Shown here piece after piece: positions 152-60,757 of a stretch of DNA of 64,000 bases; within the stretch, counting starts at the first letter, position 1; every line of letters starts with the position of its first letter. The stretch covers positions 3,361-67,360 of the IMG/VR virus record IMGVR_UViG_3300033067_000449; one strand, 5' to 3'. The position numbers and the translations under genes are program-made. Below the pieces are notes generated by a model that saw only the letters and a program-made list of their open reading frames with translations, did not search any database and had not been told where the DNA came from. Source of the DNA: a virus. Lineage: Duplodnaviria; Caudoviricetes.

Positions 152-355
152 TTACATTTTTCTAATTCTTCTACCTTTTGGATTTTCTTTATTTGTTATT
201 TCTGTGATACCAAAATCAAACCCTTGTGTTGGGGTCTCAGATTCCCATCGTTCAAGCATAGTTAATACATGTGCATACTTATCATCAGAATACATCATAT
301 GGTGTATTAACAGTGAAATGAATTGCTTCCGTTGGTTTATGTCTAATCGTTTCAT
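152..355 (-). CDS. hypothetical protein (67 aa)
   Basis: ORF in a chain of overlapping minus-strand genes; overlaps the 352..861 stop. Confidence 0.6.
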   Translation of the reverse strand: MKRLDINQRKQFISLLIHHMMYSDDKYAHVLTMLERWESETPTQGFDFGITEITNKENPKGRRIRKM

Positions 356-861
356 ACTTTCAATATTCTAATTGTGTAATCGGTATACAAAAACTCTCTG
401 TTGTTGTACGCTTGTTCAAAGCCATTAAGGGTATATACTTTACCTGCGGCCTCAGCATGCAATACAAACTCATCATCAGTCATCTCATCATCATCTTCAT
501 CATCAACCATATATACACGAACCTCACCTGATCCGTATGACTTATAGTAATCAATGAACGAAGTCAATGTTTCATATGCCGTTGGATAACTGGTTTTGTA
601 TTCTAGCCAGGCTTGTACTTGACTGTGCATGTGATACATAGTAGTTCTGTCTTTTCCAAAAGATATGGCTACCAAATCAAGGTCTACATTCTCAATCGCT
701 ATTGCAACATAACAACCAATGTACCTGATGCGAACTAAGTTCTTTGCTCTTGTTTTTAGGTATTCATCCTTGGTCATACCGAAGTATATTTCAAGTTGCT
801 GATGAATGTGTTCTAGTTTCTCTGCCGACTTCTTGTCGATTATTCTTTCAACGTTTTCCAT
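352..861 (-). CDS. DnaA C-terminal-domain-like HTH protein with acidic C-terminal extension
   Basis: Segment 'KTRAKNLVRIRYIGCYV...LDLVAISFGKDRTTMYH' resembles DnaA domain IV (R..AMYL...IG..FG.RDHTTV.H); no AAA+ domain. Confidence 0.6.
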   Translation of the reverse strand: MENVERIIDKKSAEKLEHIHQQLEIYFGMTKDEYLKTRAKNLVRIRYIGCYVAIAIENVDLDLVAISFGKDRTTMYHMHSQVQAWLEYKTSYPTAYETLTSFIDYYKSYGSGEVRVYMVDDEDDDEMTDDEFVLHAEAAGKVYTLNGFEQAYNNREFLYTDYTIRILKV

Positions 862-1072
862 TATTTGCTCTGTTAAATATTTCTATTAGTGTTTTTACAT
901 CGGAGGCATTCTCAATATAACCTTTGATATCGTCAACGGTTACATACCATCCATCTTTTGATTTGTCTGCAATCAACCAATTACTATCGGTTAATTGTTT
1001 TTCGTAGAATACGAAATCATCACCCTTGCTGAGAATGAATCCCATTTCAATTAATTCTTTTCTTTGTATCAT
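848..1072 (-). CDS. hypothetical protein (74 aa)
   Basis: Overlaps both neighbours; 'ELIEMGF' start resembles small Bacteroidota phage proteins. Confidence 0.65.
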   Translation of the reverse strand: MIQRKELIEMGFILSKGDDFVFYEKQLTDSNWLIADKSKDGWYVTVDDIKGYIENASDVKTLIEIFNRANNGKR

Positions 1073-1275
1073 ATATAAAATACTATTTGTCTTCTTACCT
1101 CATCGTAATGAGCAATTTCTTTTTTGTTCTGCCACTCGTTCAATTTAAGGGCTTGAATGATCTTGTCAACTGCAACAATAGAACAAGCACGTGCAGTACT
1201 TTCGTCTATTGGCTCTTGTTCAAAAATCCACAACATATCGTGGTAGATTTGGTCTGCTTCTTCTTTTGGTGTCAT
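1069..1275 (-). CDS. hypothetical protein, Bacteroidota-phage 'MTPKE(K)A' family
   Basis: MTPKEEA...ARACSIVAVDKII...YDEVRRQI pattern; ATGA overlaps. Confidence 0.65.
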   Translation of the reverse strand: MTPKEEADQIYHDMLWIFEQEPIDESTARACSIVAVDKIIQALKLNEWQNKKEIAHYDEVRRQIVFYI

Positions 1276-1457
1276 GATATTTTGGTTTTGTTAAATTCGT
1301 TTAGTTGTTCTTCGGTTAGTTCTGATACCGAAATGAATTTCTCATTCCATTGTTTTTCAAGCAATTCATTATACTCTTCAATAACTGATGTAAATGAATA
1401 GGTGAACCCATCAAACTTTCCGTCTGAGTTCATGCGTACATAATCTAAATCTGTCAT
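1272..1457 (-). CDS. hypothetical protein (61 aa)
   Basis: ORF track; ATGA overlap with the downstream gene. Confidence 0.55.
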   Translation of the reverse strand: MTDLDYVRMNSDGKFDGFTYSFTSVIEEYNELLEKQWNEKFISVSELTEEQLNEFNKTKIS

Positions 1458-3803: not shown

Positions 3804-3850
3804 AATTGTTTTTGTTTTTTAATTGGTTGATTGATTGATTGATTAATTGA

Positions 3851-5128
3851 TTAGTTAGTTTCGATTGGCAATGTAGTCATAGGACTGGTTGTGTTGTTCA
3901 TGAAATCATCTTGTTGTTCGGGTGTCAAGTCATCCCAATCAATTACGATAATTGGATTGTCCCACACTGTGTTGGTAATATCAACAGGTTTCTTATCCTT
4001 CTTGGGTAACTTGATAATCTTACGCTTGACAAGATAGTTGTGTGTGTCAATGACTTCGAATGAATACTGACGACAATAGGTGTAGAACATCTCACCTTTC
4101 TTAATGATTTGGTCTACGCTATACACTTGACGCAACAATGAATGTAACTTACTGCGACCATCAAGCATATTTTTTAAGACTTGGGCCTCACTTACATTAC
4201 GATTAGATACCATATACTTGATTAACTCAGTACGCCATAAGATATTAGTAACATTCTTAACAGCACTGAAGATACGAAACTCTAAGCGAGAGTCTTTGAT
4301 ATACACAGCACCATACTTATCATTGGCACTATTATGTTTAGAGATAGCAGGACAATAGGTATTCTTGACACGACCATTATACAAAGCATAAAGCATAGGC
4401 ATATAAGACTTGATAGAGTCATACACTTCGCGAGGTGTCATAGTAATGTGTGATATGTTGATGTGACCACCACAATCTTTACTGTAATCTGCATTGATAT
4501 AACCCTCAACATTACGGAATGTGTCGGCAGTTACATTGAACATGTCAAACACAGGAGAGATAAACTCAAAGCCAGTAGAATCACAAAGAGAACCATCGCG
4601 TTCTTTTGCCCACTTGGTACGATTGAAACAGTCATGCGCAGACTCACAACTACGGTAATGATCGTCTTCTTTCTCTACCTCATAAGCGATACGCCACTCT
4701 GCAACGGTAGCCTCAGAAGTAAAGTGACGATTGCCGCTATGATAATCAAACAAATCATCAGCATCAGGTTCTGGTTCTGTGTGATAATCACCATCGTCTT
4801 CCCAATAGTATAGGTTCAGTTCTTCTGCAACATCTGAGTTAATGACATAACTGTAATCCCAATCTCTAACATGAACAAAGTCAGAGTAACGATGGAAATA
4901 ACCTGTGTTACCACGTCTGTCAATAACACCATGCACTGCTTGAGATTCCCAAATTTCTTCTTGATAGTACTCACAAAATACAACACTACCGTCATCACGT
5001 AGTTCGTCAAGTTCAGTGTCGGTAAGCCAACAGTGGAGACGATCGTAGTAGGTGGCCTCAGATTGTGGTACTTCTACTTGAAAGTGAGTAGTTACCATTT
5101 CTACTTCTTGATTTCCTAAATGTTCCAT
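3851..5128 (-). CDS. putative amidoligase (COOH-NH2 ligase type 2 / Amidoligase_2-like)
   Basis: 'AYEVEKE', 'ERDGSL...GFEFISP', 'CGGHINIS', 'KYGAV...RLEFRIF' motifs; adjacent to the GATase, a known phage gene pair. Confidence 0.8.
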   Translation of the reverse strand: MEHLGNQEVEMVTTHFQVEVPQSEATYYDRLHCWLTDTELDELRDDGSVVFCEYYQEEIWESQAVHGVIDRRGNTGYFHRYSDFVHVRDWDYSYVINSDVAEELNLYYWEDDGDYHTEPEPDADDLFDYHSGNRHFTSEATVAEWRIAYEVEKEDDHYRSCESAHDCFNRTKWAKERDGSLCDSTGFEFISPVFDMFNVTADTFRNVEGYINADYSKDCGGHINISHITMTPREVYDSIKSYMPMLYALYNGRVKNTYCPAISKHNSANDKYGAVYIKDSRLEFRIFSAVKNVTNILWRTELIKYMVSNRNVSEAQVLKNMLDGRSKLHSLLRQVYSVDQIIKKGEMFYTYCRQYSFEVIDTHNYLVKRKIIKLPKKDKKPVDITNTVWDNPIIVIDWDDLTPEQQDDFMNNTTSPMTTLPIETN

Positions 5129-5989: not shown

Positions 5990-6595
5990 TTGAGGCCTCA
6001 GATCTAAATTGTCCGCACCCGATAGCAGATACATAGCGTGTGAGTATCCAACACACATTAAGCCATAGACAACAGGCACTAAGTATAAAATAGAAGACAC
6101 GACCGCATGAGCCGTGTTTGTTCGTTTGTGTTGGTTCGGTTACATAATTGCAACTATTGATTCATTCAGTACACTATTCAATCAGCTGTAAGTCGCTGAG
6201 TGTACCGCCACGTATTTACCATATATGTCCGTGAGTATCCCATTAAGGGAGGATGCCATACCTATCCGATGATAGGCTGAATCGGGCTAACAATTACATA
6301 TGATTAATGATTTCAGTATATCACCCTGATTCTGTGTAATCAGTGCCCATAGCGTTACCGCTACTTTTAACCGTTAGGATTCGGTGGGGGTACAGTAGTA
6401 CCGCAAGGTGAACTAGTCAGTAGGTTCCAACGCTACCGCTTATCTTTCGATAAGGCATCATAAAACTTCCGCAAGGTTACGCATATTGATTTTTGCTTTC
6501 AATAAATACTTGCATCGCTTCCGCTAGGTAATCACTTACACTAACGGAAAAATATGAGGAATTTTTGTCCCGTCCATTTTGCAGAACGAAACGCA
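5990..6595. other. non-coding, hairpin-dense region (candidate structured RNA or ssDNA element)
   Basis: No convincing ORF over about 530 nt (6060-6590). Stems include CCTATC-CGAT-GATAGG, TAGCG-TTAC-CGCTA, TAGT-ACC-GCAA-GGT-GA-ACTA, CTTATC-TTTC-GATAAG, TATTGA...TCAATA and TTTTGC...GCAAAA. Confidence 0.4.
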
Positions 6596-6624
6596 AAAAG
6601 GGGATAAATATCCCCGATTTTTTT
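6595..6624. terminator. bidirectional intrinsic terminator
   Basis: AAAAA-GGGGAT-AAAT-ATCCCC-GATTTTTTT; T-tracts on both strands. Confidence 0.75.
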
Positions 6625-7316: not shown

Positions 7317-7388
7317 GAACGATATTCGCATACCTCGGACAATGGGGTTTTTCTTCCCTTTGAACTAACTTGATATAGAATTCAGACA

Positions 7389-7417
7389 CAAAGATAGGTA
7401 TAAATTCGATATATCAA
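7389..7417 (-). promoter_or_regulatory. Bacteroidota housekeeping-sigma promoter (TTG-N18-TATCTTTG)
   Basis: Matches the -33 TTG / -7 TAnnTTTG consensus; AT-rich upstream. Confidence 0.7.
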
Positions 7418-8040: not shown

Positions 8041-8041
8041 T

Positions 8042-8821
8042 TTAATCTATGTTACAGAAACAGTTCATACCCTCATCTCCCTTCCATAAATCCAGCTGCG
8101 AGATAGCCTTGTCTCTTATTTGCCTATATGTAATGTCCTTTCTGAACTGCTTCTCGTATTTGTCCTCCATCTCAATCCACCAATCTAGTAGTTCAGGCTT
8201 ATCCTTCGCAATCATTGCGAGTTTTCCCTTACCTTTTAGGAAGCATCCGTCACAGTTTCCATACAGAGGATCTATTTCAAGGTCGAATGGTTGTTGTTTC
8301 CACCAGTCTAGTACGTCAGCCTTAGTTATTTTCCACTTGTATAGGGGGAGTTCTAGTTCTTCCTTGACAAAGCGGTCACTTGCTTTTAGTTTGGCTACTC
8401 TATCGGGTTCGTCATATCTTATTCCGAGGTAGTTGGTGTAGTATTTTACGCCTATTGATTTGAGGTAGTATTTGAGAGTTTTGAGTTTGAGGAATTTGGT
8501 GCAGTATCTTTGAAAGTTGGAGGGGAGGTAGCCTTTGTTATATTGGATGGCTTTTTCAAATGGTTCTCCGTTTCGTGAGGCTGTTTCGTAAGTGACTTCT
8601 TTGAATGTTCCTTTTGTCTTCTCTCCCTCTTTTATGTCGTATTCTATCCATACTATGTTTAGGTTCCATTCTTTATCGCATTTGTGTATAAAGTCTAAGG
8701 TCTGAGGCCCCTCCTTTCCAGTATTTTGAAACACCACCACGTAGTTTGTAAGACCTTCGTCTATCAATCTCTTTGTCATATAGGCTGATGTTCTGCCGCC
8801 AGAAAAGTTTATTATATTCAC
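8042..8821 (-). CDS. PAPS-reductase family protein (PP-loop, Cys-rich; GTG start)
   Basis: 'FSGGRTSAYM' PP-loop, 'NTGKE', 'RYCTKFLK', 'GIRYDE', 'NCDGCFLK', C-terminal CFC. Confidence 0.85.
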   Translation of the reverse strand: MNIINFSGGRTSAYMTKRLIDEGLTNYVVVFQNTGKEGPQTLDFIHKCDKEWNLNIVWIEYDIKEGEKTKGTFKEVTYETASRNGEPFEKAIQYNKGYLPSNFQRYCTKFLKLKTLKYYLKSIGVKYYTNYLGIRYDEPDRVAKLKASDRFVKEELELPLYKWKITKADVLDWWKQQPFDLEIDPLYGNCDGCFLKGKGKLAMIAKDKPELLDWWIEMEDKYEKQFRKDITYRQIRDKAISQLDLWKGDEGMNCFCNID

Positions 8822-9036
8822 GCATGCAAAAATCGGAAAAATTCATGCACTTTACAAGTGCTAGTTGCAGTTTCCAAGACATGTGTTATCTTTGTCATAT
8901 GGGTATCGAGATATCATTATTATTCCCCTCCGCCTTTATCGTTGGTGTTGAGTATTTTTCTGCTAATCATGAGAATGAGTACCAGGAGTTAGATTTTAAC
9001 TTAGGGCTTATTAGGATTACGTTTATCTGGTAAACG

Positions 9037-9077
9037 AAAAAAGCCCCACGAGCAGATCTTACGGTATGCAGGTGGGG
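9037..9077 (-). terminator. probable intrinsic terminator
   Basis: Minus strand CCCCAC...GTGGGG followed by C-TTTTTT. Confidence 0.55.
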
Positions 9078-9098
9078 ACATTTATCAAAATAGAAATA

Positions 9099-9614
9099 TT
9101 AAATCTGGTCTTCGTCTATTAGTGTATAGGTGAATATCTCTGTGGCTTCCTTCTTAAACATTGAATAGGCAAGCGGAGATATTACTTGTGAGGCTTCTGA
9201 TTGTCCCGATAGAACACTCTTCGTGCTGAAGGGCCAAATGAAGTGAAGAGGGTGGAAGATTAACTGTACTCCACAAAGTTTGGCTTCATACTCGTCAAAG
9301 ACGTTTAGTTCGTTGATGGTGTCTCGTAGGATGACGTGTGAGCGTTGTTGTCCGTAGTGTACAAAGTGTTTTGCTTTTGTGTAGACGTATTGGCCTGTTT
9401 GGAGCATTAGGTGATTGGGGCGGGTATTCATTTTGAATTCGTATCCTGTCTCTCCTTCTATTACCATTATTAGTTTGTCTTCTAGTCCTTGTAGATGTGA
9501 GACCCCCGAATCAGTTCTTATGCCAACCAAATGGAACTCGTAATTCCAAAAGTATCCTTCCGAAAGCATGTACTCCCGAATCCTGTCTAATTTATAATCT
9601 GATATCTTTTTCAT
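9099..9614 (-). CDS. degenerate paralog of the endolysin 39636..40220; catalytic Cys replaced by Ser
   Basis: Colinear motifs LVGIRT/VIGIRN, NTRP/TTDP, GQY/GQY, LRD/YRD, GVQLIFH/GINIH, QSEASQV/WSHGCTV, FTYTLI/FTYTVI. Confidence 0.75.
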   Translation of the reverse strand: MKKISDYKLDRIREYMLSEGYFWNYEFHLVGIRTDSGVSHLQGLEDKLIMVIEGETGYEFKMNTRPNHLMLQTGQYVYTKAKHFVHYGQQRSHVILRDTINELNVFDEYEAKLCGVQLIFHPLHFIWPFSTKSVLSGQSEASQVISPLAYSMFKKEATEIFTYTLIDEDQI

Positions 9615-9841
9615 GACATTGCAAAATCAATCATTAACTTCATGGCTTTAGCACTCTCTTGAGAGAAACTGTCGAAGAAACTTTCTGCCTCACGTTGAGT
9701 GTTAAACTTATACTCCGTTTCAAAGTAGTCATTGTCGGTGAATGTTTCCAAACCTACGTTCCTGGACATAGTGGTGTACTTGAGTCTGAGTTTCTTACCC
9801 AGTACCTCGAACTCTTTTCTTTTTATTTCTAATTCGTTCAT
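9611..9841 (-). CDS. hypothetical protein (76 aa)
   Basis: ATGA overlaps on both sides. Confidence 0.65.
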   Translation of the reverse strand: MNELEIKRKEFEVLGKKLRLKYTTMSRNVGLETFTDNDYFETEYKFNTQREAESFFDSFSQESAKAMKLMIDFAMS

Positions 9842-10821
9842 TTCAATCCGTTTTTCATTGATCTAACACCACGAGAATCTGTCTTCCAAGTTATCTTACC
9901 TCTTTCTCCGAAGTCGAGAGTTTCGTGTTCTTTCATTTCGGCCTTAATAAATGCACTGGCTAATCTTACTTCTCCCTCTATGTCTTTTATCTGTTCGTTG
10001 AGTGCTTTCATTCTGAGGCCCAAGTTGTAAAGTTCTGTAGTACCCTTCAATGTCTTGGCTTCACTTTGCGCATACTTCTGACTCAAGAATTTAGAATATG
10101 CTTCTGTGCCATCAGGTTCTGGAGCATAAAGATCAGCATGTTCCATATCGTTGCGTGCAGCAGTTACCCTATCCCAAAATTCGGAAACAGCAGATGTGAT
10201 CTTTTCGACCATAAAGTCTAGTTTCTCAATTGGGAACACATTTATGTTACGCCCATCTTCCAAGAACACTAGTTCACCGTACTCTACTTCTAATCCAATT
10301 AGGTAAGTTGTTAACTGCGCAATATAAGATGGTGGTACTCCATTGTCCCATTGCTTAGATGAGAAGCCACTGATTGTTTTTACTTCAAGTACTCCCTTGA
10401 TATTTTCGTGGATTACAGTATTGTCTACAACAGCAGGCTTATCTGCTTCGATTATAATCCTATCGGGAGACAAAAAGATATGAGGGTATTTGTCATTTAC
10501 AATATAACCCGCTGATTCTTGGATGTATCTCTTTCGGTTTCCTTCGTTGAAGTTTTTGATGATTGACTCTTGGCTTCCTTCGTAGTATGTCCACATATCG
10601 GCTACGAATCCTTCCAATCTGTTTCCCATGAACATAGCCATGTTTTCATCTATCTTCTGAGGAATAAGACCTAACTTCTGATAGAATAGTTCTATTGACG
10701 ACTTCCAGGGGTTCAATCCCAAGATAGTTCCTACCTCTGAGGCACCAATGCCCGAACTACGGTAGTTTAACCAACCTTCGTAGTCTTGGTCTTTGTCGAT
10801 ATTGATTATCTTAAAACCCAT
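9838..10821 (-). CDS. YqaJ-like (lambda-exonuclease family) recombination exonuclease
   Basis: 'WLNYRSSGIGASEVGTILGLNPWKS', 'SPDRII', 'LEVKT', 'YIAQLTTY'. Confidence 0.9.
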   Translation of the reverse strand: MGFKIINIDKDQDYEGWLNYRSSGIGASEVGTILGLNPWKSSIELFYQKLGLIPQKIDENMAMFMGNRLEGFVADMWTYYEGSQESIIKNFNEGNRKRYIQESAGYIVNDKYPHIFLSPDRIIIEADKPAVVDNTVIHENIKGVLEVKTISGFSSKQWDNGVPPSYIAQLTTYLIGLEVEYGELVFLEDGRNINVFPIEKLDFMVEKITSAVSEFWDRVTAARNDMEHADLYAPEPDGTEAYSKFLSQKYAQSEAKTLKGTTELYNLGLRMKALNEQIKDIEGEVRLASAFIKAEMKEHETLDFGERGKITWKTDSRGVRSMKNGLK

Positions 10822-11015
10822 TTTTCGAATTCTTCTGCGATTTTGATAACATCACTTGCTGAAGCGGTGCCTGCACATTGTGCTGCTGCCTTCAAACAAG
10901 ATTGACGAATGATTTGTGTATCCTTACTATATGCGTGTTCCATATGAGGATATGTTGGCGTGCTAAATGCTACAGCCATTTTTTCTGCTAGACTTGTGTT
11001 TTTAATTTTGCTCAT
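10806..11015 (-). CDS. hypothetical protein (69 aa), 'IIRQSCLKAA' family
   Basis: Lies between the SSB and the exonuclease; motif recurrent in Bacteroidota phages. Confidence 0.6.
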   Translation of the reverse strand: MSKIKNTSLAEKMAVAFSTPTYPHMEHAYSKDTQIIRQSCLKAAAQCAGTASASDVIKIAEEFEKWVLR

Positions 11016-11022
11016 AGTTTTG

Positions 11023-11050
11023 AAAAATAAGGGGAATCATAAGACTCCCC
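11023..11050 (-). terminator. hairpin/terminator after the SSB gene
   Basis: Minus strand GGGGAGTC-TTAT-GATTCCCC followed by TTATTTTT. Confidence 0.6.
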
Positions 11051-11076
11051 ATAAGTGATTGATTTACAGTTAGTTA

Positions 11077-11730
11077 TTAGAATGGCAAATCATCATCCTC
11101 CTCTTCCTCAAAAGAAATAACAGGCTTTTCTGTTTTGGTAGAGGTAACTTGTGAAACTTCAGGTAACATTGATGGATTTAACAACTGAGCGTTTAACTTT
11201 TGTAACAAATCAAAGTAAAACTTGTTACGAGCCTCACGATCGTAATCCACGATTTCGCCTTTCTTGTTGTACGTTACGTCAACATCGGGTCGTCCTTGAG
11301 GATTGTCGTTTGTGTAATACCACTTCAATACTTGGCTGTCTTGAATCAACAACAAACCAGACTTCATCTTTCCTTCTACTTCCCTTTGTGTAGGAACCAT
11401 ACGAAGAGGACGAGACAAGTTGGCGTTGGGGATAATTGAGCAGAAATTTTCAAAGTACTTAGAATCTACGTCCATGTTGATGTAGTAGGTTTCTGTTCCG
11501 TCTACGAACTGAATACTCAAGAACAATTTGTCAACCCCCATCAAGTTTTCAGTGCGGGTAGACATTTTAGTAATGTAGCCTTCAATGTAGTCGTAGATGT
11601 AGTAGTACTTCTCTTCGCCTTTTTTGTTCAAGATAGTTGTAGTACCTTCTTCTTTTGTTTTCGAGTAGCGGTAAAGTTTACCATTTCTCACGTTCAAATA
11701 CGTTGCGTTAGTTTTAATTCCTAGTGCCAT
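11077..11730 (-). CDS. single-stranded DNA-binding protein (putative)
   Basis: Acidic C-terminus 'EEEEDDDLPF', beta-rich core, next to YqaJ, own promoter. Confidence 0.7.
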   Translation of the reverse strand: MALGIKTNATYLNVRNGKLYRYSKTKEEGTTTILNKKGEEKYYYIYDYIEGYITKMSTRTENLMGVDKLFLSIQFVDGTETYYINMDVDSKYFENFCSIIPNANLSRPLRMVPTQREVEGKMKSGLLLIQDSQVLKWYYTNDNPQGRPDVDVTYNKKGEIVDYDREARNKFYFDLLQKLNAQLLNPSMLPEVSQVTSTKTEKPVISFEEEEDDDLPF

Positions 11731-11747
11731 GTTTTTAATTGTGTATG

Positions 11748-11777
11748 CAAATATAATGTATAATTGTTACTTTCCAA
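11748..11777 (-). promoter_or_regulatory. Bacteroidota-type promoter (TTG-N19-TATATTTG) for the SSB/YqaJ operon
   Basis: Consensus match 17 nt upstream of the ATG. Confidence 0.7.
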
Positions 11778-12078
11778 ATCTTTTTCTTAAAATATTTTCG
11801 AGGGCCATTCTATCGGTTTGTGATGCTTCACATGTTACCAGTTCTGTCTCGACTTTATCCTCTGTTGTGTAATGTTGTTCAAGTCTATCTTGTTCAATAT
11901 GCTTTGGATAGTTTGGCATGATGCCTGTTTTAACACATTCAGCAAGTTCTGTTTCATCCAATGAGTTTGCATAAAAGCAAGTTCTAATGAAGCGATACAT
12001 TTGTTTCTTTGTTTCTTCATTTTGCTTGTATAAAAACTTTTCGTTATACCTTTTTAATTCTCTTCTTGATTTTGACAT
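11767..12078 (-). CDS. hypothetical protein (103 aa)
   Basis: ORF track. Confidence 0.6.
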   Translation of the reverse strand: MSKSRRELKRYNEKFLYKQNEETKKQMYRFIRTCFYANSLDETELAECVKTGIMPNYPKHIEQDRLEQHYTTEDKVETELVTCEASQTDRMALENILRKRFGK

Positions 12079-12326
12079 ATTGCGTAGGTTAAATTGATTT
12101 TTTTGCTTTTCTCATCTGTGAGACGTGTTGAGATTGGATCTTTCTTGTTTTCTTCTACCAACTTGGTGGCAAACGCCATTGCTTTTTCTTTATACCCGCA
12201 TGCAAGTATAAACAAGACCATATCGCAAGCAATGAACGCATTCCTTTGTTTTGGAAATTCAGAAATGAGTTTTCTCGCATAGGAGTTAACCATTTCTTTC
12301 ATTTGCAGTTCTGTTTTGTAAATCAT
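12054..12326 (-). CDS. hypothetical protein (90 aa)
   Basis: First gene of the leftward arm; TACATTTG at 12335-12342. Confidence 0.65.
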   Translation of the reverse strand: MIYKTELQMKEMVNSYARKLISEFPKQRNAFIACDMVLFILACGYKEKAMAFATKLVEENKKDPISTRLTDEKSKKINLTYAICQNQEEN

Positions 12327-12334
12327 AATGCTTA

Positions 12335-12405
12335 CAAATGTAATATCAATTATTCATCAATTATTAACAAATTATAAAATATCACAATTATTTGTATATT
12401 TGTGA
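12335..12405. promoter_or_regulatory. divergent promoter/operator region
   Basis: TACATTTG (-, 12335-12342) and TATATTTG (+, 12395-12402); CAATTATT at 12347, 12358 and 12385; TCACAA-N12-TTGTGA inverted repeat at 12382-12405. Confidence 0.65.
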
Positions 12406-12407
12406 CA

Positions 12408-12656
12408 ATGAAAAGTACATATGTCTATATCAGAAGAGATTGTGATTATGCTACTAGAAAGCAGATGGAATTGATTCAGCATTTGGATCTGAGCCTCAAG
12501 TTTAAAGATTACGACTTTCTATCAGAAAGACTTGGCTTAACTGAGACAACAATACGCAACATATTCAAAACACATACTGTAAACAATCCAAAATACATAC
12601 CATTGCTCAAAAAAGCAGTTAAAGAACAATTATTGAGAGATGTCTGTATCGTTTAA
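12408..12656 (+). CDS. HTH transcriptional regulator (Cro/XRE-like, putative); start moved to ATG 12408
   Basis: 'YDFLSERLGLTETTIRNIFK' helix-turn-helix pattern. Confidence 0.6.
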   Translation: MKSTYVYIRRDCDYATRKQMELIQHLDLSLKFKDYDFLSERLGLTETTIRNIFKTHTVNNPKYIPLLKKAVKEQLLRDVCIV

Positions 12657-13071
12657 CGACCAAAAGGAAAAATTAGAGAAAAGATTGCGGGAAATATACA
12701 AAATGGGTATGCCCAGAGCAATTGAGGCTCAAAAAGTTGTTGAGGCACGAAAAAATTTCTTCTTTGAGAGTTCTGATGCCTACATGAGGAACAAGATTGA
12801 GATATTCGTTAAAAATGTTGAATACCTGAAAATCAAACATCAAATGTCCGATTACAAGATGGGGGATTTCATTTTTATGCAAACTGGAATCGGAGTATAC
12901 AGAACAAACGCAATTGGATTCTTGATTAACGCCAAGAGAATATCAATAGAAAAACTACTATTTCACGCAAAGACAGTCGGTCTTTCTTTTGATGTTGACC
13001 CACTAGAATTGATATCTACAGACATAGAATTCGCAGATTCTAGAAATTCTGTAAAAAAGTTTTGGAAATAA
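12640..13071 (+). CDS. hypothetical protein (143 aa)
   Basis: Overlaps the HTH gene stop. Confidence 0.7.
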   Translation: MSVSFNDQKEKLEKRLREIYKMGMPRAIEAQKVVEARKNFFFESSDAYMRNKIEIFVKNVEYLKIKHQMSDYKMGDFIFMQTGIGVYRTNAIGFLINAKRISIEKLLFHAKTVGLSFDVDPLELISTDIEFADSRNSVKKFWK

Positions 13072-13090
13072 GAAAATTGTATTATATTTG
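13062..13090 (+). promoter_or_regulatory. promoter (TTG-N18-TATATTTG) firing into a 400-nt non-coding region
   Basis: Consensus match; no plus-strand ORF over 60 aa follows until the portal. Confidence 0.6.
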
Positions 13091-13448
13091 CCGCTACTTG
13101 TGGTCGGAGGTACAGATGTACGTGACAGCAGCGCAAGTAATTTACGCTTCTACTGTGGGAACCTATTAAAGAAGCAGCACCGGCACAAAGGACTGAGGTG
13201 TATAATAGGCGGGGGGTACAGCCCTTGAAAGTTGAGTCCAAGCGTTAACCACCTGTATGTTGGCACGTTCTCATGATAGACGAACAAGTATATCATTTTT
13301 GAGATGTGAGAACTAAGACAAATTAACTTTTGTTTTAGGAACTCACTCACGTCTCAATCAACCAAACAAATCATGTATCACAAACTATAGAATACGCTTA
13401 CTAGGATAAGGTAAGATAATGAGTATCTATGGTAAAAAAATCAAAAAC

Positions 13449-13479
13449 TTGTTTTCTTCCAACTTTAGGCTTATATTTG
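13449..13479 (+). promoter_or_regulatory. portal operon promoter (TTG-N20-TATATTTG)
   Basis: Consensus match 13 nt upstream of the ATG. Confidence 0.7.
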
Positions 13480-13492
13480 TAAAGTAGGCGAT

Positions 13493-15694: not shown

Positions 15695-15734
15695 CTTGGT
15701 AATTTAAAAATAAACAACTAATTTCGAACACTAT

Positions 15735-40220: not shown

Positions 40221-40234
40221 TATTTGGGTCTCAG

Positions 40235-45777: not shown

Positions 45778-48654
45778 ATGGCTAATTTAGATACCAGAGA
45801 AAACGCCCCCCTTTTAGAGAGTAATCCCCTACCTACGGGAGGAAAACGATTGAGGGTTGGCATAGAAGGACAGAGTGTTGCGGTAAGTGCAGCGACTTTG
45901 TCCACAGCAACCATGCGCCAGACCCTCGGTGGCGATTTACAATTTGGTCTTCCGATTCGGGCCTCAGAAAACCTTACCGATCCAGTAGATCGTTTCCGTG
46001 TTTCTCAACCCCAGTCAATGATTGATACCGACTTTGAATATGGCACTCAGCCTACAAAGTGGGAAACCATCAATATGACTAACCGCAGACCATATGCAAC
46101 CTACAACGTACAAACTCCTTTGATTGTTACGGCAATCTCTAGTACGGCCAACTCACGTGTCGTAAGTGTAACAACCGCAGTATCGGTTGCCGCTGGTACT
46201 CCTGTGTTTGTACAAGACGCAACTTGGGAAGGTGCTAATGGTTTGTTCACCGCAAACAGCACAGGTACTACCTTTACCTACACCGCACAATACGCTGCTC
46301 CAACCACAGGTTCTATCTTGAACGCAAACGTAACAACCGTTTATCAAGGTCAAATCTTTACCGGTGCTGCTATCGGAGGTGCTCCTACTTTTGCTTGGAC
46401 TGCTGGTTTGGCTGTTCCTGTAACCACAACAGTTCCTCACGGATTGTCAATCGGTAACGAAATCGTAGTAAGCGGTTCTTCTCAAGCAAACGCAAATGGC
46501 GCTTGGACTGTTGCTCGAATTGTTTCTGATACCCAATTCATATACTACACAACAACCGCAGTTGCTGCTAACCCTACGGGTGGTTTGATTTACAATCGTC
46601 CTCAAGGTGCTGCATTGCACAGAGCATTTGACGGTGGTGTTAAATTCTCATCTAACGCACAATCTGCCAACGAGCAGTTGATTCGTCAAACTCGTAAATA
46701 CTTCCGTTACCAGTCTGGTAAAGGTATTCAGATGTCTACAGGTTCTATCTTGAAGCCATCTTTCAACCCCGACTTGATTACTTCTGTTGGAACCACCGTA
46801 ACCGTAAATACTAAAGAGGCACACAACCTTCAGTATGGGGCTCAGATTGTAGTATCTGGTTGTAACGAAACTGCATACAATGGTACATTTAACGTAACCG
46901 CTGTAATCAACCCAACTCAATTCCAATACGTTGCTCTTTCTACACCATCTGCTGCCTCGGCCTCAGGTCAATATCAAGTTTATGTAAATGCTTGGGTAGG
47001 CTCACACGTTCGTTTGGGTATGTTTGACGATCAGAACGGATTGTTCTTTGAATTTGACGGAACTAACTTGTACGCTGTTCGCAGAGCATCTACTTATCAA
47101 ATCTCTGGCTCTATTACCGTTGCAAACAACACTAACGTAGTAACAGGTACGGGTTCAGAATTCTCAACTCAGTTGCTACCTGGAGACATGGTTGTAATCA
47201 AAGGGCAATCTTACAAGGTAGAGCGAATTATCAGCGATACTCAATTTGTAATTAACCCTTCTTACAGAGGTCCATCTATTACTGCTCCTTCTTTTGCTTT
47301 TGTAACCAAAACTGTAGATACTAAAATTCCTCAGTCTGCTTGGAACATTGATAGAATGAATGGTGCTGGTGGTGCAACTAACCCATCTGGTTTTAACTTG
47401 GATTTGTCTAAGATGCAAATGTTCTACATCGACTATTCTTGGTATGGTGCAGGTGCAATTCGTTGGGGATTCCGTGGTACCAACGGCCAAGTGACTTACT
47501 GCCACAAATTAGCCAACAACAACGTAAACCTTGAGGCATACATGAGAACAGGTAACTTACCTACTCGTTATGAAACAAGTACTATTCCTGCATCAACTCG
47601 TATTACTTCTACAATCAATCCTGGAGATATTACAATTAACGTTTTAGATGCTACATATTTCCCAACCTCAGGTATTGCCAGAATCAGCAACGGTGCAACA
47701 ATTGAATATGTTAACTACACAGGAAAAACTGGAACAACTTTGACTGGTTTGACTCGTGCTAGAGGTGGTGAAACTGCTGGTATTGCCGTTACTATTGCCG
47801 CTGGTTCTGTTTCGGGTACAGTTATATCTTCTACCAACTTGCAAGTAGGTATGCGTGTAATTTCTACCGCTTTCCCCGATGGAACATATCTTGCATTTGT
47901 ATCAGGTACTTCGGTTATCTTTAGTAACGCTGCAATCACAGCCAACCCAACTGGTGTTATTTTCTCACCAATGGGAGCAACCACAGCGCAGACATTTACT
48001 TTCAACGCCAACGCCCCTATCTCGGTTGAGTTTGGTGGTCCTACTGCTGCTCCAATCATTTCACACTGGGGTTCTTCAGTAATTATGGATGGTCGTTTCG
48101 ATGAAGATAAGCAGTTCTTGTTTACTACAGGTTCTACTACTGCGTTGTCAGTTCCTACTGCTGGTAACAGGTTTGCTTTGATGTCAATTCGTCTTGCTCC
48201 TTCAGTAAGTTCTGGTTTGACTGGTGCCTTCGGTGTTCGTGAGATTATCAACCGAATGCAGTTGTCATTGCAATCAATTGGTATCTACGCTCAAGGTAAC
48301 TATCTTGTAACGTTGGTTCTTAACGGTCAGATTAGTGCTGCCGATACTTGGACAAACGTGGGAGGTTCTTCTCTTGCTCAAGTATGTTTTCACGGTGCAG
48401 GTCGTACTGTAGCAGGTGGTGAAACTGTCGGTGGTTTCTATGTAAACTCTGGCGGTACTACCTTCGGTACATCTACTTACGATTTGAGTAAAACTCGTGA
48501 CTTGGGTAACTCAATCTTGGGTGGAGGAACAACCACTGTGAATACTCAGTTCTACCCCGATGGTCCAGATATTCTTACCATTGTGGTACAGGCTTTGACC
48601 ACTGGTACTTCTAACGTATTTGGTCGTTTGTCTTGGACTGAAGCACAAGCATAA
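45778..48654 (+). CDS. large beta-rich structural / tail appendage protein (958 aa)
   Basis: 'DTDFEYGTQPTKWE' motif, repeated 'TTxxHGLxxG..I.VSG...NG.W/F.V' (FCCH-like) modules, Thr/Gly-rich. Confidence 0.7.
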   Translation: MANLDTRENAPLLESNPLPTGGKRLRVGIEGQSVAVSAATLSTATMRQTLGGDLQFGLPIRASENLTDPVDRFRVSQPQSMIDTDFEYGTQPTKWETINMTNRRPYATYNVQTPLIVTAISSTANSRVVSVTTAVSVAAGTPVFVQDATWEGANGLFTANSTGTTFTYTAQYAAPTTGSILNANVTTVYQGQIFTGAAIGGAPTFAWTAGLAVPVTTTVPHGLSIGNEIVVSGSSQANANGAWTVARIVSDTQFIYYTTTAVAANPTGGLIYNRPQGAALHRAFDGGVKFSSNAQSANEQLIRQTRKYFRYQSGKGIQMSTGSILKPSFNPDLITSVGTTVTVNTKEAHNLQYGAQIVVSGCNETAYNGTFNVTAVINPTQFQYVALSTPSAASASGQYQVYVNAWVGSHVRLGMFDDQNGLFFEFDGTNLYAVRRASTYQISGSITVANNTNVVTGTGSEFSTQLLPGDMVVIKGQSYKVERIISDTQFVINPSYRGPSITAPSFAFVTKTVDTKIPQSAWNIDRMNGAGGATNPSGFNLDLSKMQMFYIDYSWYGAGAIRWGFRGTNGQVTYCHKLANNNVNLEAYMRTGNLPTRYETSTIPASTRITSTINPGDITINVLDATYFPTSGIARISNGATIEYVNYTGKTGTTLTGLTRARGGETAGIAVTIAAGSVSGTVISSTNLQVGMRVISTAFPDGTYLAFVSGTSVIFSNAAITANPTGVIFSPMGATTAQTFTFNANAPISVEFGGPTAAPIISHWGSSVIMDGRFDEDKQFLFTTGSTTALSVPTAGNRFALMSIRLAPSVSSGLTGAFGVREIINRMQLSLQSIGIYAQGNYLVTLVLNGQISAADTWTNVGGSSLAQVCFHGAGRTVAGGETVGGFYVNSGGTTFGTSTYDLSKTRDLGNSILGGGTTTVNTQFYPDGPDILTIVVQALTTGTSNVFGRLSWTEAQA

Positions 48655-48968: not shown

Positions 48969-49260
48969 TAGATTAGTCAAAGCTGGGGTCTCAGGTTACA
49001 ACAAACCTAAGGCTACTCCTTCTCATCCCAAGAAGAGTCACATTGTTGTTGCCAAAGAAGGTGACAAAATTAAAACAATTCGATTCGGACAACAAGGGGT
49101 AAAGACTAATCAAACAGTAGGTCAAAGAAAAGCATTTGAATCTCGCCACGCTAAGAATATTTCAAAGGGTAAGATGTCTGCCGCCTATTGGTCCGATAAA
49201 GTAAAGTGGAGTCCAAGCAAAACTGCTTCTCCAAGTAAGAAATGGAAAAAAGGAAGTTAA
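48949..49260 (+). CDS. conserved basic phage protein ('IRFGQQG...RHA...SAAYWS.KVKW' family); start moved to ATG 48949
   Basis: Motif widespread in aquatic phages; overlaps the holin end. Confidence 0.7.
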   Translation: MPLKKDNRLVKAGVSGYNKPKATPSHPKKSHIVVAKEGDKIKTIRFGQQGVKTNQTVGQRKAFESRHAKNISKGKMSAAYWSDKVKWSPSKTASPSKKWKKGS

Positions 49261-56651: not shown

Positions 56652-58505
56652 TTATACAATTTCGCAAGCACCACCTGCACAAGCAGCTTCGCCCATCAAA
56701 TTTGTATTGTCGTTAATTTCTACAATATTTGCGACATTGATTTTACTCAAACCCTTTGACATTTCTAGGTAGGTAGCCTCGTCAGTATCCTCGAATGGAG
56801 TCTGTTTGTATGAGCCCAAATCTTCAGGCACGAATGACAGACCGTTGTAGTGATTCTGATTCTCCCACAACCATTCTCCAACGATTCCCCACTCGCTTGG
56901 TTTCATAGTCACACTAGCCGAAACGTTGTGTGTATTCTCACCATAGACGTGCCCAGGTTTAATCCATTTCTCGTGGAGCAACTTCACCCTTTCCAAGAAC
57001 TGAATTGCGCTCTCAGAGTGACGAGTAATCGAACCTTTAGGAGCAGCGATTGGAACACATACATATGCCTCAGCAGAAGTGTAAATACTATCCTCTAGCA
57101 ACTCAGGGTGGTTGATTGACAAGTAGGTGTAAAGGGCCTCACTCTTACCTACTTTCATTCTGCGGATGTAGTAATCTGAGTGCCAAGTGTGAACACCAGA
57201 CGAGCATCCCAAAACGATTGATGATGTTCCTGACGGCTTGATTGTGGTGATACGAGCAGAAGGATTGATTCCAATCTCATCGGCAGTAACTCTATTGACT
57301 CTGTAAGCAACTTCAGCAGCCTCAGGCATATCCAAATTAAGAACTGCGCCCGATGCAACACCAGTCATACCGATTCCCAATAAAGCCTCTCTTTCAGTTA
57401 CTTCTTTCCATTCGGGTCTCAGATAATGAAAATCAGTGTAAGATGCTTGCAATGTTCCAATAAAGGCAGCAGCCGCTGTTCTCTGTTCGAAATCATACTG
57501 ATCTTTCAAGTCAGAAGCATTAATCTCCACCAAATTACAGAATTGGAATGAGTTCAAGCTAATCTCAGCGCAAGGATTCGTTCCGAGTTCCAAATCATTC
57601 GTAAAGAAGAAGCCAGGTTCGCCTGAATTACTTGCTTCAACTTTCTTCCACAAGTCCAAGAATTGACTCTTGTTGATTGTACCACGAAGTAACTTTGCAC
57701 TGTTGTTGGCACGACCACGCTGAGGATTTGTTTCATACCACTTACCGAATTTGCAAGTAAGCATATCTTCATCATCGTAATCGAATAAAGCAATCATTGC
57801 GGATCTACGGATACCACCAGCCAATACTGCATTTGCAATATGACATAGGATATCGTGGCACTCTAATGATGTCAACTTTTCTCCGTCTTGTTTACGCTCA
57901 AGAATAGATTCAATTTGCAATAAACAAATTCTCAAAGGCTCTGGTCCTGGAGCAACCCCACCGCTTGTAATCAATCTCTCTCCCTTTGCACGGATAGCAC
58001 GGAAGTCAAAGTTTGGTTTCCAAGTGCTGAGACCGAAATACGACTTCATCAATACCTTTACGGCATCGGCCCATCCTTCGATGTTATCGGGGATTAAGAA
58101 CCTTCTCTGTTTCTTCGGCTTGGCAATGGCAGGTAATTTACTAATGTGATTACGGCTGATGCTATAACCGACTCCAGTACCCGAAAGCAATAAGAACATA
58201 GTCTCATTAAATGCCCGATAGTCGTCAATGTGAAGATAAGAGCAGTTAAAAAGACGAGCGTTATTAACTTCAATAGGTTTACCAGCAAATTGAAGAGAAC
58301 GCATTGACGGAAGAATTTCTCTATTTCGTACAAATTTGTAAGCATTTTTAATTTCTTGTTCTAGTTGGGGAAACTTACGAATGTGCATGTCGATGTTGCG
58401 GTCGATAATCTCATTCCAAGTTTCTCTTCTTTGTTGAGTTTGGTTGTATTTAGCATACTTGCTCCATACAACGATGTCCGATAGTATTTCGTGATTTAGT
58501 TCCAT
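56652..58505 (-). CDS. nrdJ: class II (adenosylcobalamin-dependent) ribonucleotide reductase, monomeric RTPR type
   Basis: 'LPSMRSL', 'FNCS', 'LLLSGTGVG', 'GGIRRSA', 'GTNPCAEI', 'TTIKPSGT', C-terminal 'ACAGGACEI'; no small subunit gene. Confidence 0.92.
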   Translation of the reverse strand: MELNHEILSDIVVWSKYAKYNQTQQRRETWNEIIDRNIDMHIRKFPQLEQEIKNAYKFVRNREILPSMRSLQFAGKPIEVNNARLFNCSYLHIDDYRAFNETMFLLLSGTGVGYSISRNHISKLPAIAKPKKQRRFLIPDNIEGWADAVKVLMKSYFGLSTWKPNFDFRAIRAKGERLITSGGVAPGPEPLRICLLQIESILERKQDGEKLTSLECHDILCHIANAVLAGGIRRSAMIALFDYDDEDMLTCKFGKWYETNPQRGRANNSAKLLRGTINKSQFLDLWKKVEASNSGEPGFFFTNDLELGTNPCAEISLNSFQFCNLVEINASDLKDQYDFEQRTAAAAFIGTLQASYTDFHYLRPEWKEVTEREALLGIGMTGVASGAVLNLDMPEAAEVAYRVNRVTADEIGINPSARITTIKPSGTSSIVLGCSSGVHTWHSDYYIRRMKVGKSEALYTYLSINHPELLEDSIYTSAEAYVCVPIAAPKGSITRHSESAIQFLERVKLLHEKWIKPGHVYGENTHNVSASVTMKPSEWGIVGEWLWENQNHYNGLSFVPEDLGSYKQTPFEDTDEATYLEMSKGLSKINVANIVEINDNTNLMGEAACAGGACEIV

Positions 58506-58506
58506 G

Positions 58507-58899
58507 TTAGAATGTTTTGCCGTGTTTGTATCCTCTCAATTTATTATAATTGATCTTGAGGAGAATGTGTGTTTCCAAATCTATGCCAAGTCCACCACAT
58601 AGGTCAAAAAGTCTGATTACTGTGTCGGCAATCTCATCTTCGAATGTGTTCTTGACATTGACCTCAAACTCGTGCTTGAAGGTTTCGGCATCCATTGGAT
58701 ATGGATCTTCTAGGTAAGCATCGTGGAGTATTCCTGCGATGTTAGGAGATACCTTGTGTTCTTTGCGTAATGCCTCTAGTCCTTCAGATAGTTCTGAGAC
58801 CACCAACATTAAAAGTTCAGGTACGTTGCGTTCTGAATCCCAGAAGCCTTTTTCTTTTGCAGTTGCGTGTGACAACTCGATTAATTTATCAATATTCAT
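58507..58899 (-). CDS. MazG-like nucleotide pyrophosphohydrolase
   Basis: 'LMLVVSELSEGLEALRK', 'EDEIADTVIRLFDL', 'KINYN..R.YKHGK'. Confidence 0.85.
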   Translation of the reverse strand: MNIDKLIELSHATAKEKGFWDSERNVPELLMLVVSELSEGLEALRKEHKVSPNIAGILHDAYLEDPYPMDAETFKHEFEVNVKNTFEDEIADTVIRLFDLCGGLGIDLETHILLKINYNKLRGYKHGKTF

Positions 58900-58903
58900 G
58901 TGT

Positions 58904-60757
58904 TTAAAATAAGGTTAGTTGTTGTGGTTCAATCTCGTCGATAATCTTTTTACACTCGATACCGAAGAAGTTGTAATCTATTTGGTAATCTTCCCAGTTT
59001 TCTTTTTCTTGGAAGTAGTTGCATTCTTGTGCAAATCCTCCTGCCAAAAGGCTATTGAGTCGTCCGTCAACATTTTGTTTGAAAACCGAGTCGCCCGTTG
59101 TTGTTGGAAGAAAGCGCATAACCTTCCCAAGATTTTTGATAACCTTGTTGCCTTCTTGCACCGTGTGCACTTCTGCGTGCCAACCCCTAGTCGCTTTATA
59201 TCTTCCGAAAAAATCATAAATGTTACGTGATTCAAAGATAGTACTTTTTATTGGTTTTTTGTTCACGAAATACTTCTCCAATGCCTTTGCTACAATCAGA
59301 TAGGAGTTGTCTTTATGCCAGTCTTTTTCTGTCTCAAATATCCCTTTCTTCTTTACCTTTCCGCTTGTTGATTCTGCAAGATAATTATTAACATCTCTGA
59401 TGACCATAAGTTTGTATTTACTATCTTCAAGTATCAATCCCGTCAACGCCATAAATCTTCTGTTGATTTCGTTGATTCTTTCGATGCTTTTCTTATGTAC
59501 TCTCACTGTCAAACCGTCCGTGTTGATTTGTAACAGTTGCACGTTTTTGACATTTGTCATGTATGCTTCTGCTAGCATTGTCAATAGAAGTTGCCCGTTA
59601 ACTGTGATTCTATAAAAGTAATACCTATCAAAGAAGGCACTCGTTGATTCTCCAGTCTTACCGAAGATTCCGTTCAGTGCGAGTTTAAGACCTGCCTGTA
59701 CTACATCGTCTCCCGCTTCTTGTGCTTCTACCCTATCGTCAAATATCTTCTTGTAGGTATCAATAAATACTTCTTGTGGAATGTGCTTAGGGTGAAAGTT
59801 GTTTGTGATTGCGATGTTCGGGTAGTAGGATTTTACGTCAAAGTCAATAATCTCATACTCATCATCTGATTCATATTTTCCAGCAGGTATGCATCCATGT
59901 ATTCCTCCTACTCCGTAGTGAAAATGAAAGCCTTTGAATACAACCGTATGCTTGAATTTAGTATCCTCTGTAATTACAGTTCTTTTGATTGAGGCCAGCA
60001 AATCCTGAAATTCTCTGTTCTGAAACTTGATGTATGGAATAACACAATCCTCCAAGTAAACAGCAGGATCAAACTTAACTCTTTCTTTCAAGGCTTTCTT
60101 ATCGAGTCCGCTTGCTGCTTTGATGTATCGCACAAATATTTCCTCTCCGATAGCAACATCGGGTTTGTTTAGAAAGTTTGATTTGTACATCTTTGAGAAG
60201 GCTTTTCTAAATTCAATTTTGTCTGCACATAGAAAGTAGAATTTTCGCGTAGATAAAACGTCATTCAGGTTATAGGAAAGTACAGATTCAACTTGGTCTT
60301 CTGTGATTTCTTCTTCGTGACTTATGGGCATTTCTTGTACATTGTACCATCCCATAGAAACTTGTAACGCTTTCAGTGATGTTCTTCTAGCCTTGTTATT
60401 GTAGTGGTTGATCAGATACAGGTCAAGCTGATTCTTCAATTTAGTTCTTGGCTTTTCGTTATCTTCCTTTGTGATGAACTGCTGAACAAATATGTAGATT
60501 GAATACGCTACGTTATGACCAGGCATTTCGCTATACCTCTGTCGGTTATCAATGATGTGGTCTAAAACAACAGCATCAAATCCTATGTTGTTGAATCCAA
60601 CCATTGTCATAGGTTGTTCTAAGTACTCAACCAACTTGTCAGTATCGTTGTTCCACGGAGAGATTGTGAATACGGTTGGGGTCTCAGAATCCTCTTCTAT
60701 ATCCGTATAGGAGAAGAAGTTTCTCATTGTTTCAATATCATATATTACCGTTTTCAT
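58904..60757 (-). CDS. family B DNA polymerase with a 3'-5' exonuclease domain
   Basis: 'YDIET', 'GFNNIGFD', 'YNLND' exonuclease motifs; 'DFDVKSYYPN', 'KLALNGIFGK', 'NTDG' polymerase motifs. Confidence 0.9.
   Translation of the reverse strand: MKTVIYDIETMRNFFSYTDIEEDSETPTVFTISPWNNDTDKLVEYLEQPMTMVGFNNIGFDAVVLDHIIDNRQRYSEMPGHNVAYSIYIFVQQFITKEDNEKPRTKLKNQLDLYLINHYNNKARRTSLKALQVSMGWYNVQEMPISHEEEITEDQVESVLSYNLNDVLSTRKFYFLCADKIEFRKAFSKMYKSNFLNKPDVAIGEEIFVRYIKAASGLDKKALKERVKFDPAVYLEDCVIPYIKFQNREFQDLLASIKRTVITEDTKFKHTVVFKGFHFHYGVGGIHGCIPAGKYESDDEYEIIDFDVKSYYPNIAITNNFHPKHIPQEVFIDTYKKIFDDRVEAQEAGDDVVQAGLKLALNGIFGKTGESTSAFFDRYYFYRITVNGQLLLTMLAEAYMTNVKNVQLLQINTDGLTVRVHKKSIERINEINRRFMALTGLILEDSKYKLMVIRDVNNYLAESTSGKVKKKGIFETEKDWHKDNSYLIVAKALEKYFVNKKPIKSTIFESRNIYDFFGRYKATRGWHAEVHTVQEGNKVIKNLGKVMRFLPTTTGDSVFKQNVDGRLNSLLAGGFAQECNYFQEKENWEDYQIDYNFFGIECKKIIDEIEPQQLTLF

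Follow-up and report, generated by a model that had tools for sequence, protein, structure and literature searches.

GGYCTCAG, a dense and strand-polar word in a freshwater phage and its relatives, as a candidate Chi-like signal

The Chi site of Escherichia coli, GCTGGTGG, is enriched in lambdoid phages that lack RecBCD inhibitors. To our knowledge no Chi has been defined for Bacteroidota. KOPS (FtsK-orienting polar sequences) and the other words read by FtsK-type translocases are polar 8-mers of host chromosomes, and their orientation switches at two points of the replicon. Here we describe GGYCTCAG, an asymmetric 8-bp word that is strongly over-represented in a phage contig from a freshwater source, the IMG/VR record IMGVR_UViG_3300033067_000449. 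The window, that is the whole stretch of DNA that was analysed, is 64,000 nucleotides long and comprises bases 3361-67360 of this single 67,360-bp contig. Coordinates are those of the window unless given otherwise.

Two kinds of dispersed phage site are also close to GGYCTCAG. The nick word of the Pseudomonas phages tf and Rembedalsseter, TACTRTGMC / WACTRTGAC, has one degenerate position and occurs 13-14 times per 45 kb where 0.7 copies are expected; it is found on a single strand whatever the gene direction, in genes as well as outside them, and is conserved in the clade despite little DNA similarity (PMC3517423, PMC11780129). The stoperators of Cluster A mycobacteriophages are sites of 13-14 bp that show no dyad symmetry; each genome has 20-30 of them, in an orientation that follows transcription (PMC6550527).

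GGYCTCAG resembles each of these systems in part. Like Chi, it is a sharp, asymmetric 8-bp word for which an orientation-dependent function is proposed here, and it is present as many weakly selected copies, about three quarters of them on the preferred strand, whose positions turn over while density and polarity are kept. Unlike Chi, it shows no enrichment in the approximately 700 genomes that were sampled from the host phylum, and its density (1 per 2.4 kb) and fold enrichment are high. With the sci nick motifs (tf, LUZ24-like, Rembedalsseter; TACTRTGMC) it shares the single degenerate position, a 10- to 20-fold enrichment, a location mostly on one strand and a presence throughout a clade. 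Those motifs all lie on one strand and at similar positions, whereas here the opposite strand carries 24% of the copies, double sites persist and positions change between relatives. The stoperators (L5, Bxb1) are likewise dispersed and asymmetric, with an orientation rule that flips between arms, but they follow transcription in all arms, are mostly intergenic and co-vary with a known repressor, and none of these three traits applies to GGYCTCAG. KOPS share the polar 8-mer and the switching at two replicon points; the differences are that KOPS are host chromosomal words, that the arms here measure 5 kb and 62 kb, that no FtsK-like gene was seen and that the sampled hosts are unenriched.

Over-representation and form of the word

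GGYCTCAG occurs 22 times on the plus strand and 5 times on the minus strand of the window, and 23 and 5 times, respectively, in the 67,360-bp genome. An earlier reading of the window from its letters alone, hereafter the original prediction, had listed 22 plus-strand and 5 minus-strand positions by eye, and all were exact on recount. Its estimate of under 1 copy per strand from base composition was also right (0.82 per strand at a G+C content of 38.8%). In a codon-aware null model, synonymous codons were shuffled inside each gene in 1000 trials, which preserves the proteins and the codon usage. This check, which the original prediction had proposed, gave 2.14 expected copies on the plus strand and 0.47 on the minus strand, and the total of a shuffle was never above 7. 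The 28 observed copies against 2.61 expected correspond to a Poisson P of 1e-19, and a shuffle of whole codons agreed with that of synonymous codons. GGYCTCAG and its overlapping neighbours rank top among the 8-, 9- and 10-mers of the genome.

Split by gene direction, 15 plus-strand copies were found in plus-strand genes (0.70 expected) and 7 in minus-strand genes (0.47), while 4 minus-strand copies were found in minus-strand genes (0.39) and 1 in plus-strand genes (0.17). Since copies on the minus strand also exceed expectation about 10-fold (5 against 0.47, P=1e-4), both orientations are selected, with the plus orientation preferred. The copies occupy all three sense frames and two antisense frames. 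Six plus-strand copies do lie inside the minus-strand gene arms, and the codons forced by the word are indeed ones that the genome avoids (GGG, GTC and GCC make up 6%, 8% and 13% of their families). When the copies of six motif-rich genomes (described below) are pooled, 115 of the 127 are inside open reading frames (ORFs), their position along the genes is uniform (Kolmogorov-Smirnov p=0.16) and the word is barely enriched between genes. This uniform placement argues against operators or promoters. A promoter, terminator or operator was rejected as candidate on these numbers; the real promoters of the genome are TAnnTTTG boxes before start codons.

Selection at the level of DNA and not of coding had been suspected from the beginning. 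It is supported by the codon-aware null model, by the variety of frames and senses, by amino-acid changes that create the word and by the turnover of positions with a kept count. An assembly artefact is ruled out, because independent contigs from other metagenomes are enriched too. The spacing of 1.5-2.8 kb that had been pointed out between 19.9 and 32.2 kb is not special: the gaps match random scatter (coefficient of variation 0.83-1.10). Two other words of the window, CTGCTGGT (13 vs 3) and ACTGCTGGT (7 vs 0), are strand-biased and Chi-like in look. A Markov model accounts for them fully (for CTGCTGGT, 13 seen and 13.6 expected), and they are therefore a product of codon repeats. A literal search for the motif in papers gave no match.

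The core of the word is GGNCTCAG, with a third-position preference of T>C>G>A and specificity at every other position. In four complete genomes pooled, one-mismatch variants were near expectation except at position 3 (G, 19 against 2.3; A, 12 against 4.0), with a weak excess also of GGYCTCCG and GGYCTCAC. Among the near variants listed originally, the GGYCTCAC site placed at 4174 has its true position at 4184, and GGGCTCAG has three further copies on the minus strand (20989, 40880, 51740). The pooled logo of the 127 sites adds c, t, G and G upstream and A downstream, giving ctGG-GGYCTCAG-A, an extended word of 12-13 bp that is quasi-palindromic. In the window, the further G that had been noted directly 5' of GGTCTCAG is present in 10 of the 11 plus-strand copies.

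Two copies can also stand head to head. Palindromes of 12 bases formed in this way occur 3 times against 0.19 expected, and the one recorded originally, CTGAGGCCTCAG, was found where it had been placed. A 14-bp double site, TCTGAGGCCTCAGA, is kept at one locus in 19 of 21 related fragments examined, and this genome has a decayed form of it, TCTGGGGTTTCAGA, at 54628-54641. A scan of IMG/VR for the 14-bp double site gave 72 matches, about 27 of them relatives of the present phage, and no unrelated word-rich phage family.

Distribution, turnover and orientation in relatives

The relatives are IMG/VR contigs from other metagenomes, found by portal searches, and ten genomes were compared. This genome and G411 carry 4.2 copies per 10 kb, followed by G001 (3.5), G414 (3.4), G002 (3.35), G412 (2.6), G004 (1.7), G003 (1.05), G005 (0.74) and G413 (0.46). 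Rich genomes thus have 2.6-4.2 copies per 10 kb and the members of a poor subclade about 0.5-1.7. A test for the motif in related phages had been proposed, and most relatives do carry 18-28 copies, one derived subclade excepted. Identities of six core proteins give three clades, A (this genome, G001), B (G411, G002, G412) and C (G414 basal to G413, G003, G004, G005), and place the poor genomes in one derived subclade, whose loss of the word the original prediction had not noticed. The core word is the same in the three deep clades, where core proteins are only 50-70% identical. The simplest history would be that the word is ancestral and was lost once.

The positions of the copies are seldom shared: of 16 sites that could be aligned with G002, 2 are common to both genomes, and of 9 that could be aligned with G001, 3 are. 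In pairwise alignments, retention of a copy tracks DNA identity (8/8 at 94-97%, 3/5 at 88%, 1/12 at 72%). Several copies owe their existence to a protein that differs from its orthologues, for example with AAASEE in place of AAACEE. Comparison of orthologues, which had been suggested as a check, thus gave turnover at an approximately neutral rate. Because positions turn over near neutrally while the count is kept, selection acts on the number of copies and not on their position.

In relatives that lack the word (L008/G005, G003), a hairpin unit, CAACCTTTGGTTG (also CAACCTTCGGTTG), is repeated on a single strand, with 10-13 copies. This is probably a terminator-promoter unit. It is also found at a contig end, the start of L149.

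Pooled over the six rich genomes, 97 copies are in plus and 30 in minus orientation. The majority strand is the portal-coding strand in every genome, and the plus orientation also prevails in the large minus-strand block, despite being antisense there. The segment of about 5.3 kb that directly precedes the portal gene has 11 of its 13 copies in minus orientation, against 19 of 114 elsewhere (Fisher p=1.4e-6), and 95 of the 114 copies outside it are in plus orientation. The reversal is present in all rich genomes and in five further fragments. This bipolar orientation is new here and was missed by the original prediction. Relative to the portal start, the left switch is located about 5.2-5.8 kb upstream and the right switch somewhere from 0.1 kb upstream to 2.5 kb downstream; for this window, the corresponding intervals are 5994-8702 and 10013-19942. 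We found no inverted repeat flanking the reversed segment, and an invertible segment was rejected on that ground.

Possible readers of the word

Based on these observations, we tentatively favour the view that GGYCTCAG is a Chi-like polar signal, read by a hypothetical direction-sensitive DNA-tracking enzyme. In brief, GGNCTCAG (extended, ctGG-GGYCTCAG-A) would be the recognition word, kept at high density by selection. The reader, which we infer to be a translocating enzyme, would act on double-stranded or unwound DNA and track one way. A helicase-nuclease or similar translocase would load at a DNA end or a broken fork and, on meeting the word in the correct orientation, would switch, so that degradation stops and recombination begins; phage DNA would be spared and recombined. 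The left switch, about 5.3 kb upstream of the portal gene, could be a physical genome end, or the right switch, near the portal start, could be a start of replication. An AddAB-type enzyme of an unsampled host might serve as reader, or an enzyme that is phage-encoded or phage-directed. The traits that GGYCTCAG has in common with Chi-type words are its asymmetry, a bias that is polar and not absolute (97:30), the bipolar arrangement and selection on density. The phage has its own exonuclease and recombination module, and no known nuclease inhibitor was detected among the phage proteins scanned.

Several results weigh against a Chi-like signal, first of all those from host chromosomes. The phage genes have no Shine-Dalgarno sequences, and many have TAnnTTTG boxes a few bases 5' of the ATG. 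Such boxes before start codons are the promoter type of Bacteroidota, from which we infer a Bacteroidota host. The host Chi or KOPS word proposed originally showed no enrichment in 401 Bacteroidota genomes that represent the phylum evenly, in 301 Flavobacteriales (even draw) or in 5 further genomes, and this negative covers only the genomes searched, about 700 sampled Bacteroidota. The 10-mer was at control level in the 401 genomes, the 8-mer was equal to control in 10 genomes including the five next-highest, and the 11-mer was found 0-2 times per genome in the Flavobacteriales against 5 times here and up to 11 times in relatives, whose genomes measure some 70 kb. A single outlier for the 10-mer, G148, was rejected, its excess coming from a repeat at contig ends.

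The phages themselves supply further counter-evidence. No gene tracks the pattern of rich and poor genomes but that for a tail-fibre-like protein with a lectin-type domain. A replacement word, as predicted if the phage had moved to a host with another Chi, was not seen in the poor subclade; one candidate, GGCGGTG, was rejected because it is limited to structural genes and also present in G414. The skew at four-fold sites is a genome-wide G excess on the plus strand that does not reverse within the short segment, and a replication-fork cause of the switch is therefore not supported. Of about 16 related contigs, five have an end some 4-6 kb 5' of the portal start (window ~7.7-9.3 kb), coinciding with the switch. 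One related contig reads across the place where the end of another would meet its start, and a repeat unit is present there. The clustered ends are suggestive of a physical genome end or of a repeat-caused break; because of the join-spanning contig and the repeat unit at that place, we take the physical end as a possibility only.

Other genes were considered as readers or partners of the word and rejected. The HNH_3+NUMOD4 homing-type endonuclease (63080-63592, minus strand) occurs in this genome alone of the ten compared. The same is true of the PAPS reductase (8042-8821, minus strand) and of an amidotransferase/ligase pair with an amidotransferase-like gene and a neighbouring 425-aa gene (3006-5128, minus strand), which are for this reason not linked to the word; the suggestion that GGYCTCAG is the target of a DNA-modification enzyme thus has no support. 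Genes for a metallophosphoesterase, ribonucleotide reductase and a MazG-like protein are missing in the motif-rich G414. Small ORFs limited to the poor subclade had no PHROG match.

Within the reading of a polar word for a tracking enzyme, it is also conceivable, if somewhat unlikely, that the word is a private polar self-tag, read by an enzyme that is encoded or redirected by the phage (nuclease, packaging or replication machinery). Such an enzyme could tell phage from host DNA and sense its direction, and the word, instead of mimicking a host signal, would be the virus's own equivalent of Chi or KOPS. A private tag is possible because the word is nearly absent from the sampled chromosomes of the host phylum. 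The same negative points away from simple Chi mimicry.

We consider it unlikely that the copies are programmed single-strand nick sites, at each of which a sequence-specific nickase would cut one strand in mature or replicating DNA, similar to the sites of T5 and of the Pseudomonas phages tf and Rembedalsseter. They are the closest published statistical match (here 28 copies against 2.6, with 76-82% on one strand), and in both cases a short asymmetric word lies many-fold above chance and is common to a clade. Against this, the minority orientation is itself about 10-fold enriched, with 5 of 28 copies here and 30 of 127 pooled copies (24%) on the opposite strand. Double sites such as CTGAGGCCTCAG are over-represented, and one is kept in 19 of 21 fragments, although nicking on both strands would amount to a double-strand break; that head-to-head sites are tolerated argues against obligatory nicking. 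Positions are not conserved, unlike in the tf group, and the only HNH endonuclease is the one private to this genome, so no nickase gene is shared. On all four counts the nick sites of the original prediction are disfavoured.

Two further explanations appear improbable to a similar degree. The first is that the copies are dispersed sites for a phage regulator, comparable to stoperators, where a monomeric repressor bound to asymmetric sites would block elongating RNA polymerase. The asymmetric word of 12-13 bp, its approximately 28 copies and their orientation along transcription on both sides of the divergent promoter region speak for it, as do a serine recombinase in all relatives and small genes at the divergent junction. 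However, copies in the second minus-strand block, which holds the replication genes, oppose transcription (7 plus and 2 minus here). The copies are spread uniformly inside genes and not at gene borders, their positions turn over freely, and no regulator or repressor gene tracks the pattern of rich and poor genomes. Stoperator motifs drift with their repressors, whereas the core here is constant across clades with 50-70% core-protein identity.

The second is that the word marks preferred sites on the lagging-strand template at which the T7-type primase-helicase of the phage begins priming. The strand polarity and its switch, which would be expected at a replication origin, agree with this, and the gene at 60738-62447 codes for a primase-helicase that has a Cys4 zinc finger. 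Spacing is random and not even, however. Characterised primases read 3-5 nt, and an enrichment of the longer word is thus unneeded for priming. Rich and poor genomes do not differ in this zinc finger, so that the poor subclade has a very similar zinc-finger primase yet has lost the word, and the four-fold-site skew stays constant across the reversed segment.

A DNA uptake sequence was rejected as well, since the hyper-abundance in the host genome that marks such sequences was not found (401 Bacteroidota, 301 Flavobacteriales). Finally, a by-product of coding, codon bias, mutation bias or assembly has a negligible probability: other top words such as CTGCTGGT are of this kind, being fully explained by the Markov model, but GGYCTCAG exceeds the codon-aware null (2.6 against 28 seen), uses rare codons, multiple frames and both senses and recurs in independent assemblies, and coding and assembly artefacts are excluded.

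Copies in the window, gene content and wider meaning

The copies and the reversed segment are listed in the table. The copy at 40683 is naturally polymorphic, as the A for G at 40690 in contigs of three other public runs abolishes it. The public runs that were located number 23, each stored as assembled contigs, and no RNA data set was listed.

Table. Copies of GGYCTCAG and associated features in the window (positions in window coordinates; a dot marks a feature on both strands).
Feature	Position	Strand	Remark
GGTCTCAG copy	233..240	+	antisense to minus-strand gene
GGCCTCAG copy	448..455	+	antisense, gene 352-861
GGCCTCAG copy	5054..5061	+	antisense, gene 3851-5128
GGCCTCAG copy	5994..6001	+	final plus copy ahead of reversed segment
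Reversed-polarity segment S1	8042..13492	-	leftward recombination operon and portal-gene leader
GGCCTCAG copy	8702..8709	-	within S1, PAPS-reductase gene
GGCCTCAG copy	10013..10020	-	within S1, YqaJ exonuclease gene
GGCCTCAG copy	19942..19949	+	sense; not at orthologous place in relatives
GGCCTCAG copy	21859..21866	+	AAASEE here, AAACEE in relatives
GGCCTCAG copy	23748..23755	+	1435-aa gene
GGTCTCAG copy	25376..25383	+	1435-aa gene
GGTCTCAG copy	25746..25753	+	1435-aa gene
GGTCTCAG copy	27277..27284	+	
GGCCTCAG copy	30049..30056	+	3048-aa gene
12-bp palindrome CTGAGGCCTCAG	32205..32216	.	head-to-head pair: minus 32205-32212, plus 32209-32216
GGTCTCAG copy	38908..38915	+	tail-fibre-like gene 38549-39634
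GGCCTCAG copy	39571..39578	+	tail-fibre-like gene 38549-39634
GGTCTCAG copy	40227..40234	+	sole intergenic copy, abuts ATG at 40235
GGTCTCAG copy	40683..40690	+	A at 40690 in contigs of three other runs
GGTCTCAG copy	44835..44842	+	1644-aa gene
GGCCTCAG copy	45960..45967	+	958-aa gene resembling cyanophage genes
GGCCTCAG copy	46959..46966	+	958-aa gene
GGTCTCAG copy	48987..48994	+	among few kept at orthologous place in relatives
GGTCTCAG copy	57415..57422	+	antisense, ribonucleotide reductase gene; kept in G002
GGTCTCAG copy	58027..58034	-	sense, ribonucleotide reductase gene
GGTCTCAG copy	58794..58801	-	
GGTCTCAG copy	60680..60687	+	antisense, DNA polymerase gene

The window encodes a portal protein, a major head protein, a large terminase and virion proteins of 1435, 3048 and 1644 aa. 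The replication genes encode a family-B DNA polymerase, the T7-type primase-helicase and ribonucleotide reductase, and further genes encode a YqaJ exonuclease, a PAPS-reductase-like protein and a serine recombinase. A plus-strand block at 12.4-50.7 kb is flanked on both sides by minus-strand blocks. The best match of the portal protein is the crAss-like cr50_1, at 21% identity. A megablast search against cultured phages gave zero matches, and alignment of the portal against 185,579 species genomes revealed no prophage or host contig. We found no tRNA genes in the genome, and the 420-bp leader 5' of the portal gene matches no Rfam family and has a fold z-score of +0.7.

Three neighbouring genes should be mentioned. 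The serine recombinase (Resolvase and Recombinase domains, 231 aa as called) is located at L146:769-1464 (genome bases), left of the window, and is kept at 62-68% in all relatives spanning that region. Integrase, invertase and multimer resolvase are all possible roles for it, and an adjoining 116-aa ORF may be its continuation. None of the relatives has the 958-aa virion gene (45778-48654, plus strand), whose product shares 44-47% identity with Synechococcus myovirus structural proteins; it is apparently a cassette gained by horizontal transfer, and it already bears two GGYCTCAG copies. A small protein encoded in the divergent promoter region (12402-12656, plus strand) has, by eye, a helix-turn-helix-like stretch, LSERLGLTETTIRNIF, and no homologue of it was detected in the relatives.

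Dense polar words are among the few features that reveal the mechanics of DNA, such as the processing of ends, recombination, packaging and the direction of replication. Such DNA handling is almost unknown for phages of Bacteroidota and for distant crAss-like phages. The case of GGYCTCAG is a well-controlled one and offers a clear phylogenetic pattern, a defined switch that predicts a genome end or an origin, and a negative test on host chromosomes. If its reader were found, the word would become the first signal of Chi type for a host in the Bacteroidota, or else a self-tag owned by the phage.

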